Notes under the pieces: model-generated | The model's database searches: none | What the model was told of the DNA's origin: nothing | What the model saw: only the letters and a program-made list of their open reading frames with translations | Made by a program: the position numbers and the translations under genes | Assembly: GCA_964016885.1 (NCBI GenBank) | Contig: OZ024744.1 | Span: 62,372,001 to 62,436,000, forward strand | Source of the DNA: Eledone cirrhosa | Lineage: Eukaryota | Length of the DNA: 64,000 nucleotides | Direction: 5' to 3' | Shown: one piece after another, positions 1-58,039 of the stretch | How the letters are laid out: each line of letters starts with the position of its first letter | How positions within the stretch are numbered: position 1 is the first letter of the stretch

Positions 1-918
1 TACAAGACGAATATTGAAAACACTGTGACTACGACTAGAAGATTCATTTAAAGCAGTTCGAGCAACTCTCCGCCGATTTTGACCTTTGTAGATAACATTG
101 AAAGCTTCATCAGGACTTTTCACTTCAACTTCTTTACAACCATGAATATACATCATCTTGTTATTATCTTCTCGAATTATTTTAGCTTGCTGGGCCTTGT
201 AGCCAACAATAGGATCAGAGGTCAGCTCTTCCAACAAATCATACACTGCATTATTATAAACTTCAACATAGGATACAAACACAGCATACAAAATCTGGTT
301 GTTGACACCTTCAACTTTTGTTTTATCTCGTAGACGTGGGTTTTGCAAGAACTCAGATCTGTCTTTTTTAGGAGTCTTTGGACAATCAGAACGAGAGGGC
401 ATGATATCATCTTGGAGTTTTGCCATTGCATCAGCTTCACTTTGAACTGTAAAACCATTCTGGTAGTCAGGCTGGAAAACATATTTTTTTGCCTGATGAT
501 GATCAATTGTGTTGAAGATGACATCAAGACATCTTGGTAATAAACCTTGATCTTTTGGACTACCAGTCATGGTGTAGGTCTTACCAGACCCAGTCACACC
601 ATAAGTGAACAGAAGAGTATTACGACCAGCAATAAGATCTTCAACAAGAGGCAAAGCAACCACATCAAACACCTCTTTCTGTGATGAACATTCATTAAAG
701 ACTTGCTGGAGTGTGTATAAGAATTCTCTTGGCTGTGTATGTCGGGTTCCATCAACAGGTTGTGTCAGCCGTATCTGGTTATCACATACACTTTCCAGAC
801 ATACACTAGTGGGGTCATCAGCTGGTTTAATACGACAGTAGACCTCCACAGGTTCTGTAACAGATATTCCAGTAAATGGAAATTTCTTCTTTGGGGTTTT
901 CCCCCTCTGTCCTTTCAT
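1..918 (-). CDS. KIF23: Kinesin-6 family motor, KIF23/MKLP1/pavarotti-like (N-terminal 306 codons; continues beyond window start)
   Basis: Manual translation from ATG at 918 is stop-free to position 1: MKGQRGKTPKKK...EPVEVYCRIKP...LLFTYGVTGSGKTYTM (P-loop)...GLLPRCLDVIFN...(long kinesin-6 loop-6 insert)...YAVFVSYVEVYNNAVYDLL...LNESSSRSHSVFNIRLV (switch I). A splice-acceptor-like ttgtttcag ends at 942, 23 nt upstream of the ATG. Confidence 0.92.
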   Translation of the reverse strand, partial: MKGQRGKTPKKKFPFTGISVTEPVEVYCRIKPADDPTSVCLESVCDNQIRLTQPVDGTRHTQPREFLYTLQQVFNECSSQKEVFDVVALPLVEDLIAGRNTLLFTYGVTGSGKTYTMTGSPKDQGLLPRCLDVIFNTIDHHQAKKYVFQPDYQNGFTVQSEADAMAKLQDDIMPSRSDCPKTPKKDRSEFLQNPRLRDKTKVEGVNNQILYAVFVSYVEVYNNAVYDLLEELTSDPIVGYKAQQAKIIREDNNKMMYIHGCKEVEVKSPDEAFNVIYKGQNRRRVARTALNESSSRSHSVFNIRLV

Positions 919-35299: not shown

Positions 35300-36105
35300 G
35301 CAGTACTGCATAAAACCAGAGATTGTGATCCTATGTCATTGCCTTTGAGAGGCGCAATTGTGTGAGGACAGTTTTTATAATCCCAAGCTTTCCTAGGTCT
35401 TCCCACTCCATAATTTCCATCAACTTTGAGTGTTCTGCACTTTTTTAAACACCTGTCATACTTTGCATGCATCATATGCCCATACCACCATAATCTTTCC
35501 TGCACACTGCCTCTTCTGCCCAATTTCTCTCAGTTCATTTATGTTCTACAAGTTATGTATATTACTATTATACATCCAGGCTTCATTTCTTTCCAATCTT
35601 CATAAGTCCTCTGTACGCAGTGCCCAGGTCTCACTACCATGCAGCATTGCTGTTTGTATACACACATCATACAATTTGCTCTTCATTTTGAGGAAAAAGC
35701 CTTTCATAGCTAGCAACAGTAATATCTCCCTGAACTTTCTTCATCCCATTCTCACTCTGGCTACTGTACTTTTGGAATACCCACCTCCACTGCTAATTTG
35801 TTACCCAGGTAAGAGAAACTGTCAACTACTTCTACAGAACCCTCTAAGCATTTGATAGAGCTTGTTTCCTGTGAGTGCTTGCTACTTAATGCTCCAGAGC
35901 ATCAACCATATGTAAAATCTACATTTGTTGCTAGCCTGTCTGAGATATTGCTACATCTCTTGTGTACCCGTAGTTTGCATTTGGGAAGGAGAATGGAATT
36001 TCTACCCACCCATTTCCTACACCCGGAACAAGGGATCAAGGCTTTATTTTCCTTTCTACTTACTAGGACTTTAGTCTTTAGTCTTTGCCCAGTTGACTTT
36101 AGGAC
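35300..36105 (-). mobile_element. RTE LINE remnant
   Basis: RLWWYGHMM...GVGRPRKAWD and upstream RT-thumb similarity to the other RTE copies. Confidence 0.75.
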
Positions 36106-36118
36106 CTTTATATATATA

Positions 36119-36686
36119 TTAGAAATGATAAGCTTTCACCGTATTTTAGACTAAAGAAATTTCTAGCCTGATAGTGGGGTTTATAACCCTCGGAGAAATG
36201 GAAAAAGATGAGTGTTGCCATACATGGGAGTCGAACCCACATCTTTGGTTATCCAGACCACTGTGCTACCATTACACCAATACACATCCCATCTCCTTCC
36301 ATTCGAATTAGAAGCTATGAACTTAGCAAGTGAATGATAAACAAGCAAATTATAAACGTAAACATGTATGTTTTTGAAACGGTGCGCGAGTTTGAAATTA
36401 GAAATTATAAGCTTTCGCTGTATTTTAGACTAAAGAAATTTCTAGCCTGATAGTGGGGTTTATAACCCTCGGTAGCACAGTGGTCTGGATAACCAAAGAT
36501 GTGGGTTTGACTCCCATGTACGGCAACACTCATCTTTTTCCATTTCTCCGAGGGTTATAAATCCCACTATCAGGCTAGAAATTTCTTTAGTCTAAAATAT
36601 GGTGAAAGCTTATAATTTCTAATTTCAAACTCGTGCACCGTTTCAAAAACATACTTACATGTTTACGTTTATAATTTGCTTGTTTA
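36119..36686. repeat. tRNA-containing tandem-plus-inverted (fold-back) repeat in (TA)n
   Basis: 36119-36192 repeats directly at 36399-36472; 36119-36270 is inverted at ~36471-36621; ~36338-36472 is inverted at ~36549-36686; tRNA-like cloverleaf on the minus strand at ~36216-36286. Confidence 0.85.
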
Positions 36687-37105
36687 TATATATATATATA
36701 TATAATTGTTTCTACATTTGGCACAAGGCCATCAATTACCCAGTTCATTACTGGTACTTTATTTTATCAACCCCGTAAGGATGAAAGGCAAAGTTAACCT
36801 CAGCGGGATTTGAACTCAGACCGTAAATGGACGTAACTATGCTGGAAAGCATGGCATCTGACCCTCTACCAATACTGGCAAAAAAAATATATATATAATA
36901 AGAGGTTAGCAGGACTAGCATAAGGTTTCCCTGCTAGTACTGGTTGCATCTCAGCGTACTCAATAGGTAAGGTTATGTAGAAATCCCAGAGTAGACACAA
37001 AGTTATTTGCCTCGATAATATACGCACGCACACACAAATATATATGAGAGAGATAATACAATAAGTACAAAATATAAAGAATACAGTCAAATTCAATTAC
37101 AAATA

Positions 37106-37111
37106 TTTATT
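37106..37111 (-). terminator. Probable MDH1 polyadenylation signal (AATAAA)
   Basis: tttatt on the plus strand about 445 nt 3' of the MDH1 stop, at the end of an AT-rich unique 3'UTR. Confidence 0.5.
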
Positions 37112-37534
37112 CTGAAGACATGAATTACAAGCAAAATTTCAGTATTTTGTTCTTCAGATCATTAAAACCATATTCATTTCAATGTAATGTTTTCATTTTT
37201 AAAATTTTTTTTTTTTAATTTCCAATTTAACCTTTGATCGATTCTTCTTTCTGAAACAGTTTCGCCATAAATCAACTGATATATATACCTTAGTTTTCAT
37301 AACCAAAAATATCTAACTTTCCACAGAGACATAAGTTTTGCTAAAATAGTTAGCACAATCTCTTTAATCTATTCAAGAAAATACAGGAATTTAACTTAAG
37401 AATTTGATTTTTTTTTTCTGTAGAAACATTTTTTGAATTTAATTTTTATCAGAGAAATATTTTCTTTGTTGAACTAAGAATTAAGGATATCTAAAAATAT
37501 CATATTTTTCACAAGATACTCTTCTAAGGCAAGA

Positions 37535-37558
37535 TTACAATTTAGAATCGTGAAGTCA
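37535..37558 (-). other. MDH1: Cryptic C-terminal readthrough extension of MDH1 ending in PTS1 (X-LHDSKL*)
   Basis: Minus strand reads TGA CTT CAC GAT TCT AAA TTG TAA. Confidence 0.75.
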
Positions 37559-37765
37559 CTCGCAGACACTCAAAGCAAGATCTCTTTCTTGAATAAGTTC
37601 TTTGAGAGTTAAATTCAGTTTGGATTTTGAAAAGTCATCAACATTCAGGTCCTTAACAATTTCATAACTATGATCAGGTTTGGTTATCACTGGGAAACTG
37701 AACATGAGACCTTTATCAATACCATACGAACCATCTGAACAAACAACCATCGATACATAAGTGCC
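37556..37765 (-). CDS. MDH1: Cytosolic malate dehydrogenase, last coding exon
   Basis: tttcag|GTYVSMVVCSDGSYGIDKGLMFSFPV...DDFSKSKLNLTLKELIQERDLALSVCE-TGA; 210 nt. Confidence 0.95.
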   Translation of the reverse strand, partial: GTYVSMVVCSDGSYGIDKGLMFSFPVITKPDHSYEIVKDLNVDDFSKSKLNLTLKELIQERDLALSVCE

Positions 37766-38296
37766 CTGAAATATAGAATTTATTGACATCCAGTAATGAG
37801 TTAACAGAAAATATCTAAAAACAAGTTTGTTATTTCAAAAGTTCATTGTAAAAACTTACAGTATTAGAGTAAAGACTCATTTTTAATGTGATAGATAGTC
37901 TTATTTTGTTTTATGTGGTTTATTAATTCAAATGTGTATAGTGAACAGATTGTCGTGAAACTTTGCAATAAACTGAATAAAGTAAAGACTTCATGTGTTG
38001 TAATCATTATCTGTTTTGTACTTTTGAAGACTGTCTTGTTAGTGTGGTTTCATGGGGGACAGGACGTTTAGAATTAAAGCGTGTTCAGTAACTCCTAATC
38101 AGTCCTGAAATCCTTATTTACCATTACTGTTAGTAATGAAACGTACTTGTACAGATAAATAGTGTGCTAAACATCCTTTAACTATTTTCTAATTAAAAAA
38201 ACAACTATTTTAAAGTGTTAATTTATATTCAATTAAAAATCTTCCATTATTATTTTATGTAAAATCATTTTTTATGTTCCAAACACTAACTTAATA

Positions 38297-38785
38297 ATTG
38301 TTTCTACTCTTGGTACAAGGCCTGCAATTATCCCAGTGCATTACTGGTACCTTATTTTATTGACCCTGTAAGGAAGAAAGGCAAAGTTAACCTCGGCGGG
38401 ATTTGAACTCAAACCATATAAGGCCAATACTCTACGCTGCAAAGCACAGTGTCCAACACTATCGATACTGCCAATCCAATAATTGTTTCTACTTTTGGCA
38501 CAATGCCAGCAATTAAATCAGTGTATTACTGGTACTTTATTTTATCGACCCCGTAAGTATGAAAGGCAAAGTTAACCTCGACGGAATTTGAACTCAGATC
38601 ATAAAGATGTTCAAATAACTACTTATGGCACAAGGCCAGCAATAACCCAGTGCATTACTGGTATTTCATTTTATCGACCCCGTAAGGATGAAAGGCAAAG
38701 TTAACCTCGGCGGGATTTGAACTCAGACTGTAAAGGGACGTAACTATGCTAGAAAGCATGGCGCCTGACTCTCTACTCAATCCAA
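38297..38785 (-). mobile_element. Three tandem tRNA-derived SINE copies in the last MDH1 intron
   Basis: Three successive ...ggtac(t)ttattttat(c)gaccc...gttaacctcg..ggatttgaactca units. Confidence 0.85.
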
Positions 38786-39968: not shown

Positions 39969-40082
39969 CTGTGGAACTCCACACCACCAATCATGAACAT
40001 GATCACAAATAGCTTTAGCAGCTGACATGGCACTTGATAATTTTCTGGCTTTAATAACTGCTGCACCACGCTGTTGAACACA
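39969..40082 (-). CDS. MDH1: MDH1 coding exon (114 nt)
   Basis: ttttcag|[38 protein letters not shown]|gtaac. Confidence 0.96.
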
Positions 40083-40766: not shown

Positions 40767-40943
40767 CTTTAGGAAATCGTCCTTCAAATATTTATCGTCA
40801 TTAACTGCTTGTTTAACTGTTTTTACCCCAGTTGGTAAAGTTACAGTTGCATAGGAAACATCTGGGTACTGGGTAGAAGAATGGTTTCCCCAGATAACAA
40901 CATTTTTAACATTCTGGGTAGAGACGTTGCACTTAGCAGCAAT
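40767..40943 (-). CDS. MDH1: MDH1 coding exon (177 nt) with the catalytic His
   Basis: ttccag|IAAKCNVSTQNVKNVVIWGNHSSTQYPDV...DDKYLKDDFLK|gtatt. Confidence 0.96.
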
Positions 40944-42790: not shown

Positions 42791-43924
42791 TATATATATA
42801 TCATTTATGTTGTGTAGTTTACAAATAGGCAGATCCGGTCATTCTGGTTAGCAAACCATGATGAAAGAAAAGAACTATGTTATGCAACTCATCCACCATA
42901 GATGTGGTATCCTGTGGCTGGTACATTGTATCATCATCATCATCATACATTAAAGTCTATCTTCCACGCTAGCATGAGTTAGATGGGTTGTCCCAATTAG
43001 AGGCAAGTTGGGTCATATTGGGGTGTTTCTGGTTGGTTTTCTATGACTGGATGCCCTTCCTAAAGCCAACCACATTGACAGTGTGTGCTGGGTGCTTTTT
43101 GCCGTGTCTTTTACACATCCACTTTACAGTGTGGGCTGGGTGTTATATATATATATATTTGTGTATATACGCACATATCATCATCACCGTTTTACGTCTG
43201 TTCTTCCATGCTAGCATGGGTTAGACAGGTTGTCCTGTTGTGGGCAGTGTCCGTTCGGCTGACCTTGTCTTGTTCATTCATCATTATCATCATCATCATC
43301 GTTTAACGTCCATTTTCCACGCTAGCATGGGTTTGGACGGGAATTGTCCCACTTGAGGCAAGATTGGTTGTCTTGCTCGTATAGGACTATCTGGCGGGTT
43401 TTCTATGGCTGGATGCCCTTCCTAACACCAACCACATTTACAGTGTGGACTGGGAAGTTTTTACCGTGTTACCTACACGGCCACATTACAGCGTGGACTG
43501 TGTGTTTTTTTGTTGTGACACCTACACGACCTCATTTATTTCAGACTGGATGTTGTGGTACCAACATAACTTTACATTGAAAGGGGTGGTGTGGATGGGG
43601 TGGGGGGTAGTGGGACGGGGGTGCATTTTTGTTAGAAGTGCCTACTGACTGTAGGTTTCGCTTTGTACTTAGGCAAGGCGGGTCTTCTGTGTTACTAAAA
43701 CAAATTATTGGAGGTACACACACATAAGCATATAAAGGTGTCTATTAGTTACTATTTTTGCTCAATGAATGAATTAACTAAATAATCAATTAGTTAGAAC
43801 GTTATAAAATCATAAATAGGTAAAGCAATTCAGATAAAAATTATCTCAAAAAAGTAATTGAGTTAATTTTTTTATCTAGTCGCTTTACTTATTTTATATA
43901 TATGAGTTTAGCGTAAAAGTTGAC

Positions 43925-45371
43925 GTCCATCAGGGCTCTGTTCTCAGCCCCCTACTATTTATTATTGCCCTTCAAGCTATAACAGAGGAGTTCAAGACCG
44001 GCTGCCCATGGGAACTCCTATACGCAGACGACCTGACACTCATAGCGGAATCAATGGCCGAGCTAGAGAAGAAATTCCAAACATGGAAGCATGGCCTAGA
44101 ATCAAAAGGCCTTAAAATTAACCTGGCTAAGACTAAAGTTCTAGTTTGTAGGAAAGAAAATAAGGCGGCGGTCCCTTCTGGGAAATGGTCGTGCTCGGTG
44201 TGTAGGAAAGGCGTAGGTAGAAACTCCATTTTATGTCCTAAATGCAAAGTATGGGTGCATAAATGATGTAGTGGGATCACAGGTAAGCTAACTAAGAACA
44301 TAGATTTTACATGTGGCCGGTGCTCTGGTGCAATAAGTAGCAGCAAGTGCCCACAAAATACTAGCTCTTTCAATTGCGCAGAGGGTTCTATAGAAATAGT
44401 GGACAGTTTCCGTTACCTGGGCGATAAAATCAGCAGTGGGGGAGGGTGCTCTGAAAGTACAGTAGCTAGAGTCAGAACTGGTTGGAAAAAGTTCAGAGAG
44501 CTTATACCACTATTAGCTGCTAAAGGGTTCTCCCTAAAAATGAAAGGCAGGTTGTACGATGCCTGCATACGAACAGCAATGTTGCATGGCAGTGAGACCT
44601 GGGCATTGTGTGCAGAGGATATACGCAGACTAGAGAGGAACGGAGCTTGCATGCTCCGCTGGATGTGTAACAGTAATATACATGAACGGCAAAGCATAAA
44701 CGAACTAAGGAAAAAATTAGAAATAAGAGGGATCAGATGTTGTTTACTCGAGAGAAGGCTACGTTGGTATGGACACGTGATGCGCATGAAAGTCGATAGC
44801 TGTATAACAAAGTGCAGGGCAATAAAGATAGACGGTAGCCACGGAATAGGCAGACCTAGAAAAACCTGGGACGAGCTGATAAACTCCGACCTCACACACT
44901 TACACCTCTCCAAGACAATGTCACTGGACCGAGACCTTTGGCGGTACTCAGTAACAGAGAAGACCCGCCTTACCTAAATACATAGTAAAACCTACTACAG
45001 CCAGTAGGCATCTTTAACAAAATACCCCCCCTCCCCGTCCCACCACCCCCACCTATCCACGCCACCCCGTTCTATGTAAAGTTGTGTTGGTGCCACACCA
45101 TCCAGGCCGAAACAAATGAGATCGTGTAAGTGTCACGACAAAAAAACACACAGTCCACGCTGTAATGTGGCCGTGTAGGCAACACAGTAAAAACCTCCCA
45201 GACCCACACTGTAAATGTGGTTGGTGTTAGGAAAGGCATCCAACTGTAGAAAACCTGCCAGACAGTCCTATGCGAGCAAGACAATCACTCTTGCCTCAAG
45301 TGGGACTACCCCCGTCCAAACCCATGCAAGCGTGGAACACGGACGTTAAACGTTGATGATGATGATGATGA
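43925..45371 (+). mobile_element. RTE LINE 3' half with a long 3'UTR and (GAT)n tail
   Basis: VHQGSVLSPLLF, ELLYADDL, FRYLGD, MLHGSETW, LRWYGHV; 3'UTR ...ggcatcca...aaacccatgc...ggacgttaaacgttgatgat. Confidence 0.9.
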
Positions 45372-45372
45372 T

Positions 45373-46134
45373 AAATTCCATAAAATGTACGCAATGCAGA
45401 TCCTGGGTACACAAGAGATGTAGTGGGATAGCAGACAAACTAACAGGTAGGGAAAACTAAATATGCAGTAGATGTACTGGGAAAGTTGACATTAGTAATT
45501 GCAGTGATAGACACATTTTTCCAATGCAGGTGGGTTTTATAGAAGTGGTTGATAGCTTCCGGTACCTAGGTGTTCAGATTAGTATGGGAGGGGGGTGTTC
45601 CGAGGCCATAGTATCTAGAATAAGGACGGGTTGGAAGAAGTTTAGGGAGCTGCTTCCTCTGCTGACAAAGAAGGGTTTCTCCCTGCGTACGAAAGGATGG
45701 TTATATGATGCCGATGCGCGATGCTGCATGGTAGTGAGACATGGGCAACAACTACAGAGGAATGAAGCAAGTATGCTCCGTTGGATGTGCAGTGTAAATG
45801 TGCTTGAACGACCAAGCATAGATGAGTTGAGAAAGAAACTGGGTATAAGAGGGATAAGTTGTGGTGTGCAGGAGAGAAGACTGAGATGGTATGGACATGT
45901 GATGCGCATGGAGGATGTCCGCTGGGTAAAAAAGTGCCAAGAAATCCCAGAAGGAAGATGCAGTAGAGGTAGACCATGAAAAACATGGGCGGAGGTGGTG
46001 AGAATTGACCCTAGATCGCTGAAGCTCATGGTGGAGATGATGAAGGACCTTGACAAGTGGAGAGATGCTGTGCTGAATAGGACCCATCCAACCCTTGCAA
46101 GCAGGGAAAAGCGGACGTAAAATGATGATGATGA

Positions 46135-46138
<4 letters not shown>
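45373..46138 (+). mobile_element. RTE LINE 3' fragment (family of 22020-22866) joined to the tail of the previous element
   Basis: FRYLG, RLRWYGHV; (GAT)n tail. Confidence 0.85.
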
Positions 46139-46171
<33 letters not shown>

Positions 46172-46564
46172 AGGTTATAGTGAGTATTTGCCATAAACCA
46201 GTTTGCTCACAATTACTCACTCAATGAGATATTTGAAGATGTGTCGAGCAAAGCCTGTCTCAGAAGGCTAACAAAGTGTATCATCATCCTCGTTTAACGT
46301 CCACTTTCCACGCTAGCATGGGTTATATAGAGAAATGCAAGTCTACATGTTAAAACATATCTAGAGTCAGGTTCCATCATTAATAGATTGATCCTCGAGC
46401 TGATCGACAGTGAAACATGTAATTAAATAGGAATATGATGCAACACTGATTCTTTGTTCCTTCTTTCATCCTTACGGGGTCGATAAAATAAAGTACCAGC
46501 AATACACTGGGTTATTGCTGGCCTTGTGCCTAACGTAGAAACAATTATTATAATATATATATAT

Positions 46565-49500
46565 CATCATCGTTGTTTAATGTCCATCTTCCATGCTAAC
46601 ATGGGTTAAATGGCTTTGTTCCATTTGATGCAGGAATGGTAGGGAGACCGTGTTTCGCTTGTACAGAAGTGTCCCTGGCAGGTTTTTACAGCTGGATGCC
46701 CTTCTTAACACCAACCACATTTACAGTGTGGTTTGGGAGCCTTTTTACCGTGTCTCCTACATGGCCACCTTACAATGTGGACTGTTGTGTCATCGACACA
46801 GTGGAGGGAACGGAAAAGAGAGGATGGAATAGGGTGTGTTTGGTGGGGAATACATTGAGTTAAGAGGTGCCTACTGACTGTAGGTTTGTATGCAATGGAA
46901 GGCGGGTCTTCTGTACAACTGCATGGCGCCAAAGACCTCGATCCAGTGACATTGTCTTAGGGAGGTGTAAGTGAGCAAGGTCAGTTTTTATCACCTAGTC
47001 CCAGGTTTTTCTTGGTCTACCCACTCCATAGCTTCCATCAATTTTCATTGCTCTGTACTTTTTTATACAGCTGTGGTCCTTCATACGCATCACATGTCCA
47101 AAGCAACACAATCTCCTCTCCAGAACACAATATTTGATACCTCTTATGCTTAGTCTCTCTCTCAATTCGTTTATGCTTCGCCGTTCGCATACATTACTAT
47201 TACACATCCAAGCTTCATTTCTTTCTAATCTACGCAGGCCTTCAGCACACAATGCTCAAGTCTTACTACCATGTAATATCACTGTTTGTATACATGCATC
47301 ATACAATCTGCCTTTCATTTTTAGAGAAAAACCCTTTGTGGCCAACAGCGGTATTAGCTCTCTAAACTTTTTCTATCCCGTTCTAACTCTGGCTACAACA
47401 CTTTCAGAGCACCCTCCTCCACTGCTGATTTTGTCACCCAGTTAATGGAAGGTATCTACTATTTCTATAGAACCATCTGGGCAGTTGAAGGAGATATCAT
47501 CCAGTGGGTCCTTGCTACTTATTGCACCTGAGCATCAGCCACATATAAAATCTACATTCTTAGATAGCTTACCTGTACCCATAGTTTGCATTTGGGACAT
47601 AGAATGGAATTTCTATCTACTTCTTTCTTACACACTGAGCATGGCCATTTCCCAGAGGGTACCTGTGCCCTATTCTCCTTTCTACATACTAGAACTTTAG
47701 TCATAGACAAGTTGACTTAGACCTTTCGATTCAAGGCCATGCTTCCATGTTTGGAACTTCTCTAGTTCAGCCATAGATTCAGCTACGAGTGTTAGATCAT
47801 CTGCATATAGAAGTTCCCATGGGCAGCCAGTCTTAAACCCTTCTGTTATAGCCTGTAGGGCAATAATAAACAGGAGGTGGCTAAGTACAGAGCCTTGATG
47901 AACCCCTACTATTACGCTAAATTCTTCACTATATTCATTGTTAATTTTAACCTTACTGACTGTTCCTCTATACATGGCTTGTATAGCTCTCACATGCCAT
48001 TCTACGACTCCTAGTTTTCTAAGAGCCCAATAGATTAAGGTGTGTGGGACTCTGTCAAAGGCTTTCTCCAGGTCAACAAAAGCTAAGTAGAGAGGTTTAC
48101 TGTTAGCTAGGTACTTCTGTAGTTACCGTACAAGGAAAAGAGCATCCGTGGTACTTTTACCTGGCACAAACCCAAACTGCACTTCATGTAGATCAATTCG
48201 GTCCCTAATCAGTTGAGTAATAACTCTTTCTGTGACTTTCATAACCTGGTCAACTAATTTAATGCCCCTATAGTTTCCTCTATCTAGGGCGTTCTCCTTT
48301 GCCCTTGTAACAGTTGACGATGCTGCTGCTATACCAGTCATTTTGTATGACCCCATTCTGTATTACTTGGTTTACTATCCGGAAGAGGGATCAGATGATG
48401 TTTACTCGAGAGAAGACTACGTTGGTATGGCCACGTGATGCGCATGAAAGACGACAGCTGTATAAAAAAGTGCAGGGTGATCAAAATTGATGGTAATTAC
48501 GGAGTAGGTAGACCCAGAAAAACCTAAGACGATCTGATAAATTCCGACCTTACACACTTGCACCTCTCTAAGACAATGTCACTGGACCGAGATCTTTGGC
48601 GCTACGCAGTAATACAGAAGACCCGCCTTGCCTATGTACAAAGCGAAACCTACAGTCAGTAGGCACCTCTTTACCAAATATACACCCCAATCCACTACCC
48701 CTACCCTATCCTCCCACTCCCACAACATCCAGTCCAAATAAATGAGATAATGAGATCGAGATCGTGTAGGTGTCACGAGAAAAAAAACACAGTCCACGCT
48801 GTAATGTGGCCGTGTAGGTAACACGGTAAAAAGTTCCCAGTACCACACTGTAAATGTGGTTGGTGTTAGGAAGGGCATCCAGCCGTAGAAAACCTGCCAG
48901 ATAGTCCTATAAGAGCGAGACATGGTCACCCGACCAACCTTGCCTCAAGTGAGACAACTCCCGTCTAACCCATGCTAGCATGGGAAATGGACGTTAAACG
49001 AAGATGATGATGATGATGATGATGATGTGACCATAGTATGTTCCACCATTCCGGCAACTATGCCTCTCTTCATATCTCTGATTGCCTTACTTACTACATT
49101 ACCATTAACTTGCACAGATGGTCCTTCTGTTGGATACATGTGGGGCAGTCTATCTTTATTACATTCATTCTCCTCATTCAGTAGTCTCTCATAGTGAGAC
49201 TTCCAAGCTACCTTATCACCATCAGTGAGGGCAAGTACATCATCGTCGTTATGGACACACGTCTCCCCGACAATATCACAATCCTCCTTGAGACATTGCC
49301 TCACAATCCTGAACACCTCGCATTGTAGAATATGCTTGAAATTACTATTCTCTGCTTCCCTCTTTGCAAAGTTTACTTGTTGTCTAGCTTCCCTCCTAGC
49401 TACCCGATAGAGTTCTCTACTACCCCCATCCTGCCATTCTTTCCATGCCTGCTTTTTGTCCTTGATGGACTCCTCCACCTTACTTTCCACCACCATGACA

Positions 49501-51422: not shown

Positions 51423-51716
<294 letters not shown>

Positions 51717-53150: not shown

Positions 53151-53326
53151 CTTGACAGTCTTTTTGGCATATTTGTCTATAGCACTTCCTTGACTCTTAA
53201 AAATCTTGACATTGGAGGCCAAAAGATCTTTCCTTTCCATTCCTTCTCTACGTGGCATGGCACCAACAAGAATAGCCACATCAATGTCCATAAAACCAAC
53301 TTCAAGAGAGGAAGTAGGTACTACGT
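53151..53326 (-). CDS. MDH1: MDH1 coding exon (176 nt) with the substrate-specificity loop
   Basis: cttcag|(N)[46 protein letters not shown]...KKTVK|gtaag; phase 1 matches the upstream exon. Confidence 0.96.
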
Positions 53327-54821: not shown

Positions 54822-54918
54822 TCTTTAGCAGTGGAAGAGCACAGTCTTGAAGTTCCATTGCAACTCCCTCCAGAACTGACATCATTGGTTCAATATCCAA
54901 AAGTACCAAAGATATTGG
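54822..54918 (-). CDS. MDH1: MDH1 coding exon (97 nt)
   Basis: ttctaaag|[32 protein letters not shown]+A|gtaagt. Confidence 0.96.
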
Positions 54919-57940: not shown

Positions 57941-58039
57941 CGTGGTTAGCCCAAAGATATTTCCCTTAGCAACATTGTAGAGGAGGGAATATGCAATCTG
58001 ACCAGCAGCTCCTGAAACCAGTACTTTTATAGGGTCGCT
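57941..58039 (-). CDS. MDH1: MDH1 coding exon (99 nt), NAD-binding GAAGQI motif; the upstream ATG exon was not located
   Basis: tttacag|[33 protein letters not shown]|gtaag. With one upstream Met the exons join in frame to 332 aa. Confidence 0.96.

Follow-up and report, generated by a model that had tools for sequence, protein, structure and literature searches.

The MDH1 gene in the window (the whole stretch of 64,000 nucleotides analysed here) belongs to an octopod and ends in a UGA-C stop codon followed in frame by the six codons LHDSKL and a second stop. Here it is proposed, with a probability of roughly 0.8, that this conserved stop and tail give rise to a peroxisomal MDH1 isoform through a low level of readthrough, the steps of tRNA decoding, import and shuttle function being put forward by analogy. 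The hidden tag is a real and probably functional feature of the gene.

The minus strand reads TGC GAG TGA CTT CAC GAT TCT AAA TTG TAA from 37564 to 37535, exactly as described in the original prediction, so that decoding of the UGA would add 7 residues, X-LHDSKL, to MDH1. The core readthrough context UGA-CU is present (TGA CTT) and the extended high-readthrough context UGA-CUA(G) is absent, positions +4 to +7 being CUUC. That extended context characterises the efficient vertebrate form, and the tails of homologous invertebrate sequences show that it is not universal. This TGA is the normal stop of the gene, because the Octopus and Argonauta entries end in ...LSVCE and the cuttlefish-type entries in ...LSVCE or ...LSVCA, at the residue homologous to the TGA position. 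As had been anticipated, standard annotation misses the tag, since the MDH1 entries of Octopus, Argonauta and Sepia all stop at the UGA. The tripeptide SKL and its receptor PEX5 are a textbook pair. Among 300,000 random sequences with the composition of the local 3' UTR (GC 24%), CT directly after the stop together with an open frame ending in SKL occurred in 1.7e-5 of cases, and CT after the stop with any [SAC][KRH][LM] ending in 7.7e-5. For a gene named in advance, the hidden SKL is well beyond chance, at about 1e-4 to 1e-5.

The gene model comprises seven GT-AG exons on the minus strand (58039-37535), which encode 331 residues with no internal stop (Table 1). A first coding exon consisting only of the ATG (ATG followed by GTAAGT, in locus L089) likely lies about 2.9 kb past the window end, and this putative start agrees with the N-terminus MSDPIK of Octopus sinensis. 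The encoded protein is 84% identical to MDH1 of Octopus bimaculoides, and in a tree of 50 rows its sister group is formed by two Octopus entries; Argonauta branches outside them (support 99/85 and 100/99), and the cuttlefish-type entries come next. Being nested among octopods, the gene identifies the organism as an octopod, which bears out and narrows the earlier suggestion of a probable cephalopod host.

Table 1. Coordinates of the MDH1 stop region and exons in the window.
Feature	Positions	Strand	Basis
Normal MDH1 stop TGA, context GAG-TGA-CTTC	37556..37558	-	homologues end at the same residue
In-frame extension LHDSKL, six codons	37538..37555	-	read from the sequence; homologous tails elsewhere
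SKL, canonical PTS1 tripeptide	37546-37538	-	last three codons of LHDSKL
Second in-frame stop TAA, places SKL at the C-terminus	37535..37537	-	read from the sequence
Last exon, coding part	37559..37765	-	AG acceptor 37766-37767; Pfam Ldh_1_C E 4.6e-8
Exon, 114 nt	39969..40082	-	GT-AG, in frame
Exon, 177 nt, with WGNHS motif	40767..40943	-	in-frame GT-AG gene model
Exon, 123 nt	51498..51620	-	in-frame GT-AG gene model
Exon, 176 nt	53151..53326	-	gene model and Pfam Ldh_1_N
Exon, 97 nt	54822..54918	-	in-frame GT-AG gene model
Exon, 99 nt, with GAAGQI NAD-binding motif	57941..58039	-	in-frame GT-AG gene model

The genome gave a single MDH1-type locus, and a further copy of MDH1 carrying a constitutive tag was rejected. 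It also has one MDH2-type locus (labelled by eye) and a Pex14_N match that barely exceeds the cut-off, corresponding to a PEX14-like exon; the scored candidates included no locus of the L-LDH type. Two long uninterrupted frames of the octopine dehydrogenase family, of 407 and 364 codons, were observed in loci L087 (889-2109) and L088. Neither has a PTS1 in frame or behind its stop, and hidden tags on these two frames were accordingly rejected. MDH1 is the only NAD+-regenerating dehydrogenase seen with a peroxisomal tag among MDH1, MDH2 (its 3' end left out) and the two octopine dehydrogenase-family frames.

Elsewhere in the window, an uninterrupted frame of 306 codons (1-918, minus strand; Pfam Kinesin E 3.8e-52) holds a kinesin motor domain, runs off the window start and presumably belongs to the KIF23/MKLP1 type. 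In contrast with the neighbouring MDH1, it has no intron over 918 bases, and is possibly an intron-poor gene or a retrocopy. A short dispersed SINE-like repeat is present in six copies (for example near 38410 and 36817, minus strand), which have a 12-base core in common and similar flanks, and a tRNA-like Rfam match (37.4 bits) lies at 36224-36279. Many broken frames resembling non-LTR reverse transcriptases, recognised by eye, occur on both strands at 1700-27900 and 43900-49500, some of them within the MDH1 introns.

The search for homologues collected 615 proteins, 595 of which reach the C-terminus, and 60 of these 595 have a tryptophan at the MDH1 stop position. We take this residue to reflect a TGA read as Trp by gene callers under another genetic code, because 34 of the 60 Trp-bearing entries have a sister entry ending just before it. 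The tails exposed in this way include LLTLESKL and LPSAKL in MDH1 rows 98% and 94% identical to Sepia, PSPKL in oysters (Crassostrea and Ostrea, up to 100% identity), PASKL and PRSKL in mussels (Mytilus, 100% and 90%), LFGPKL in abalone (Haliotis rufescens, 100%) and LRGAKL in Sinanodonta (88%); more distant tails include LASSHL and LASSRL (coral-like), LSDSKL (arthropod-like) and several ending in ANL. A broad PTS1 pattern, [SACP][KRHNQS][LM], ends 45 of the 60 Trp-bearing entries and 29 of the 43 distinct tails, against 0.6-0.9% of random sequence, and a strict pattern, [SAC][KRH][LM], ends 17 of the 43, against 0.3%; two of the protein searches used a profile containing such tails, which biases these shares in their favour. 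The other 14 distinct tails have no PTS1 match. Where clusters had been selected for their number of members, regardless of tail, all six Trp-bearing members end in SKL, AKL or PKL; in two further clusters not picked by tail, none of the seven Trp-bearing members matches a PTS1, their tails being LNHKL (two), ...SPL (two) and Arg-starting (RV..., three). No Trp-extended entry from an octopod is present among the 615 proteins, the nearest being cuttlefish-type, and none of 120 full-length homologues has a strict PTS1 at the end of its annotated frame.

The first residues and lengths of these tails also bear on the stop context. All 29 PTS1-type tails begin with L (18), Q (6), P (3) or H (2), whereas 7 of the remaining 14 tails do so (Fisher p 1e-4, with related rows not independent); this is consistent with UGA-C, as these residues have C-initial codons (L also TTR). 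Six codons is the modal length of the PTS1-type tails (16 of 29) and also the length of the extension in the window, so the idea of an odd, unrelated extension does not hold, the more so as arthropod-like entries carry LSDSKL and LEESKL. The original prediction had staked itself on related species keeping the tag, and for the most part they do, with 29 of 43 tails overall, the PTS1 ends of the cuttlefish-, oyster-, mussel- and abalone-type entries among them. Judged from these protein calls, the stop context and the PTS1 appear to be conserved in other molluscs; the C at +4 (UGA-C) seems to be all of the context that molluscan and annelid-like MDH1 retain, with a tail of five to eight codons. 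An MDH1 named from the sponge Dysidea avara (P0583 cluster) falls into one cluster with P0324, which carries the tail LDDTHKSRL; should these entries truly be of sponge origin, the hidden MDH1 tag would reach Porifera. PTS1-like ends in the regular frame (CKL, SKL, SNL, SHL) were observed in the animal-type MDH1 sequences L004, P0004, P0013, P0176 with its cluster, and P0299, and may reflect repeated switches between hidden and constitutive MDH1 tags. Where metagenomic gene callers treat the TGA of animal contigs as a Trp codon, hidden C-terminal extensions come to light, and Trp-extended entries are a possible cheap screen for conserved readthrough tags without 3' UTR DNA.

At the DNA level, a metagenome scan gave at least 80 loci, mostly bacterial-type, with six eukaryote-type loci among the matches listed. 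Three of these six combine TGA-CT with a closed extension whose end resembles a PTS1: L002 (TGA CTA, 19 codons, ending LSHL) and L005 (TGA CTA G, LEESKL), which group with arthropod entries, and L003, which has the same TGA CTT as the window and ends in LSNL, and which is unplaced in the tree. Among the other three, L004 has TAA with no hidden tag and a regular frame ending in the constitutive PTS1-like CKL, the sequence of L010 stops 5 bases after the stop codon, and L016, grouping with a plant entry, has TAA and a tail ending in TRL. Among the matches listed, 73 loci with a stop score lower and are of bacterial type, only three of them being placed with bacteria by the tree, and none of these 73 has a strict PTS1 extension; one of the 80 loci had no stop in its stretch.

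The original prediction proposed readthrough through a variant UGA-CUU context. The context is indeed present, and UGA-CU has been described as the core readthrough motif, sufficient in itself and stimulated by A at the next position (PMC4207609); left unweighed in that proposal was the behaviour of CUU-C in a human reporter, where it stands at background. In HeLa cells, PRDM10 (TGA CTTC) gave 0.13% readthrough, at the level of the TAA controls (0.10-0.20%; PMC4359377, Table 1), DHX38 and EDEM3, both TGA CTTG, gave 0.27% and 0.66%, and human MDH1 gave 2.91% (PMC4359377). In the octopod MDH1, readthrough probably falls far short of the 3-4% seen for human MDH1. No stimulatory hairpin was found within 150 nt 3' of the stop, the three folds being equal to shuffled sequences (z-scores -0.33, -0.38 and +0.56), and structure-stimulated programmed readthrough was rejected on these folding energies. 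In the proposed mechanism, ribosomes would read through UGA-C at a low basal rate by means of a near-cognate tRNA, much as the UGA of human MDH1x is decoded as Trp or Arg (PMC5133446). The longer isoform, with SKL at its end, is predicted to bind PEX5 and to be imported into the peroxisome, where it would likely reoxidise NADH in a malate/oxaloacetate shuttle. A low level of readthrough is regarded in a review as enough for the small peroxisomal compartment (PMC9549241).

The most serious alternative, although an improbable one, is that the tag is a decaying relic in the octopod lineage, in which an ancestral functional signal has drifted to UGA-CUUC and leaves only background readthrough and no selected isoform. 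The 0.13% of UGA-CUUC in human cells and the lack of a hairpin downstream of the MDH1 stop agree with such decay, as do the homologous clusters without a matching tail and the description of readthrough PTS1s as patchy and easily lost (PMC9549241). However, the frame, the modal six-codon length, the C at +4 and a perfect SKL are all intact despite the AT-rich UTR (GC 24%). Moreover, bivalve tails start with Pro (CCN) and annelid-like tails with Gln or His (CAN) and keep their PTS1 across genera; therefore a context other than CUAG is the rule among molluscs and does not point to decay. Very unlikely, and clearly more so than decay, is the reading that A-to-I editing converts the UGA stop to UGI, which is decoded as Trp, and that it does so instead of or besides readthrough. 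Editing would make up for the weak stop context, and coleoids recode extensively, stop-loss editing being recognised in their editomes with a mention of UAG to UGG (PMC8382921). Nevertheless, the same architecture is found in bivalve, gastropod, coral-like and arthropod-like sequences, the conserved C at +4 is a signature of readthrough, and there is no notable duplex around the MDH1 stop. ADARs disfavour adenosines preceded by a G, as the A of UGA is, which also counts against editing. Because the feature extends beyond coleoids, editing is an unlikely origin of the hidden tag.

A chance SKL and stop, read in a random 3' UTR after UGA-C, has a lower probability again. Six codons make a short motif, and about one chance match of this kind may be expected when a whole genome is scanned; yet the gene concerned is the very one in which the feature is known across animals, and its homologues repeat the tag, so the tails appear largely to refute chance. 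The least probable readings are that the UGA, a codon for selenocysteine, is decoded as such, or that the stop is bypassed by alternative splicing, by which fungi make cryptic PTS1s (PMC9549241). Selenoprotein recoding was not supported, there being no SECIS among six Rfam matches (E up to 5) in 35500-38000; splice bypass was likewise not supported, as no AG lies between the TGA and the SKL codons to serve as a standard acceptor for skipping the stop.

Readthrough of a conserved UGA-C stop, as preferred here, closes, for the molluscs, a gap in a recoding event known throughout animals and puts the annotation right; it overturns nothing. Tentatively, and at somewhat less than even odds, selection in molluscs and annelid-like animals may keep the peroxisomal MDH1 isoform with UGA-C alone, the stop being followed by CUU in the octopod, by CC- in oysters and mussels and by CA- in annelid-like sequences; in human cells, such contexts stay at background. 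Either termination at UGA-C would be leakier in these animals than in mammals, or readthrough of about 0.1-0.3% of an abundant enzyme, combined with a strong tag, would be enough for conservation since the Cambrian. If the reading with UGA-C alone is true, animals would ancestrally have had the six-codon tail, and the long form with CUAG in vertebrates would be derived. The relaxed contexts would provide a natural allelic series of how little readthrough selection can keep, and of termination rules between phyla.

The cryptic PTS1 of MDH1 has been described as highly conserved in animals and already present in Hydra vulgaris (Stiebler et al. 2014, PMC4207609, text on Fig. 4C), a statement that covers the octopod case; the deep ancestry that the original prediction raised beside convergence had thus already been published, as conservation across animals. 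The MDH1 rows of Table S2 in that work list human, mouse, chicken, Xenopus, C. elegans and Drosophila and no mollusc, although Fig. 4C may include one; Drosophila has SNL in the regular frame and C. elegans has none (PMC4207609, Table S2). The MDH1x work of Hofhuis et al. 2016 appears to concern vertebrates only (PMC5133446). No molluscan report of a readthrough MDH1 PTS1 was found in the literature searched, whose supplements may list further species. Compared with vertebrate MDH1x, the octopod gene shares the orthologous gene itself, the UGA-CU context, the in-frame extension closed by a second stop and the PTS1 end (PMC4207609, PMC5133446). It differs in its context, UGA-CUU-C where vertebrates have UGA-CUA-G, in the length of its extension, which has six codons after the UGA where theirs is much longer, and in its end, SKL against CRL in mammals and SRL in non-mammalian vertebrates, and it is known from sequence alone. 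Its extension is as long as that of mammalian LDHBx, a dehydrogenase that likewise regenerates NAD+ and whose 18 nucleotides after the UGA also end in a PTS1 (Schueren et al. 2014, PMC4359377), whereas LDHBx is a different gene with a UGA-CUAG context, described there for mammals only (PMC4359377). A hidden PTS1 behind the MDH1 stop is thus already known across animals, and what is new here is its molluscan member.
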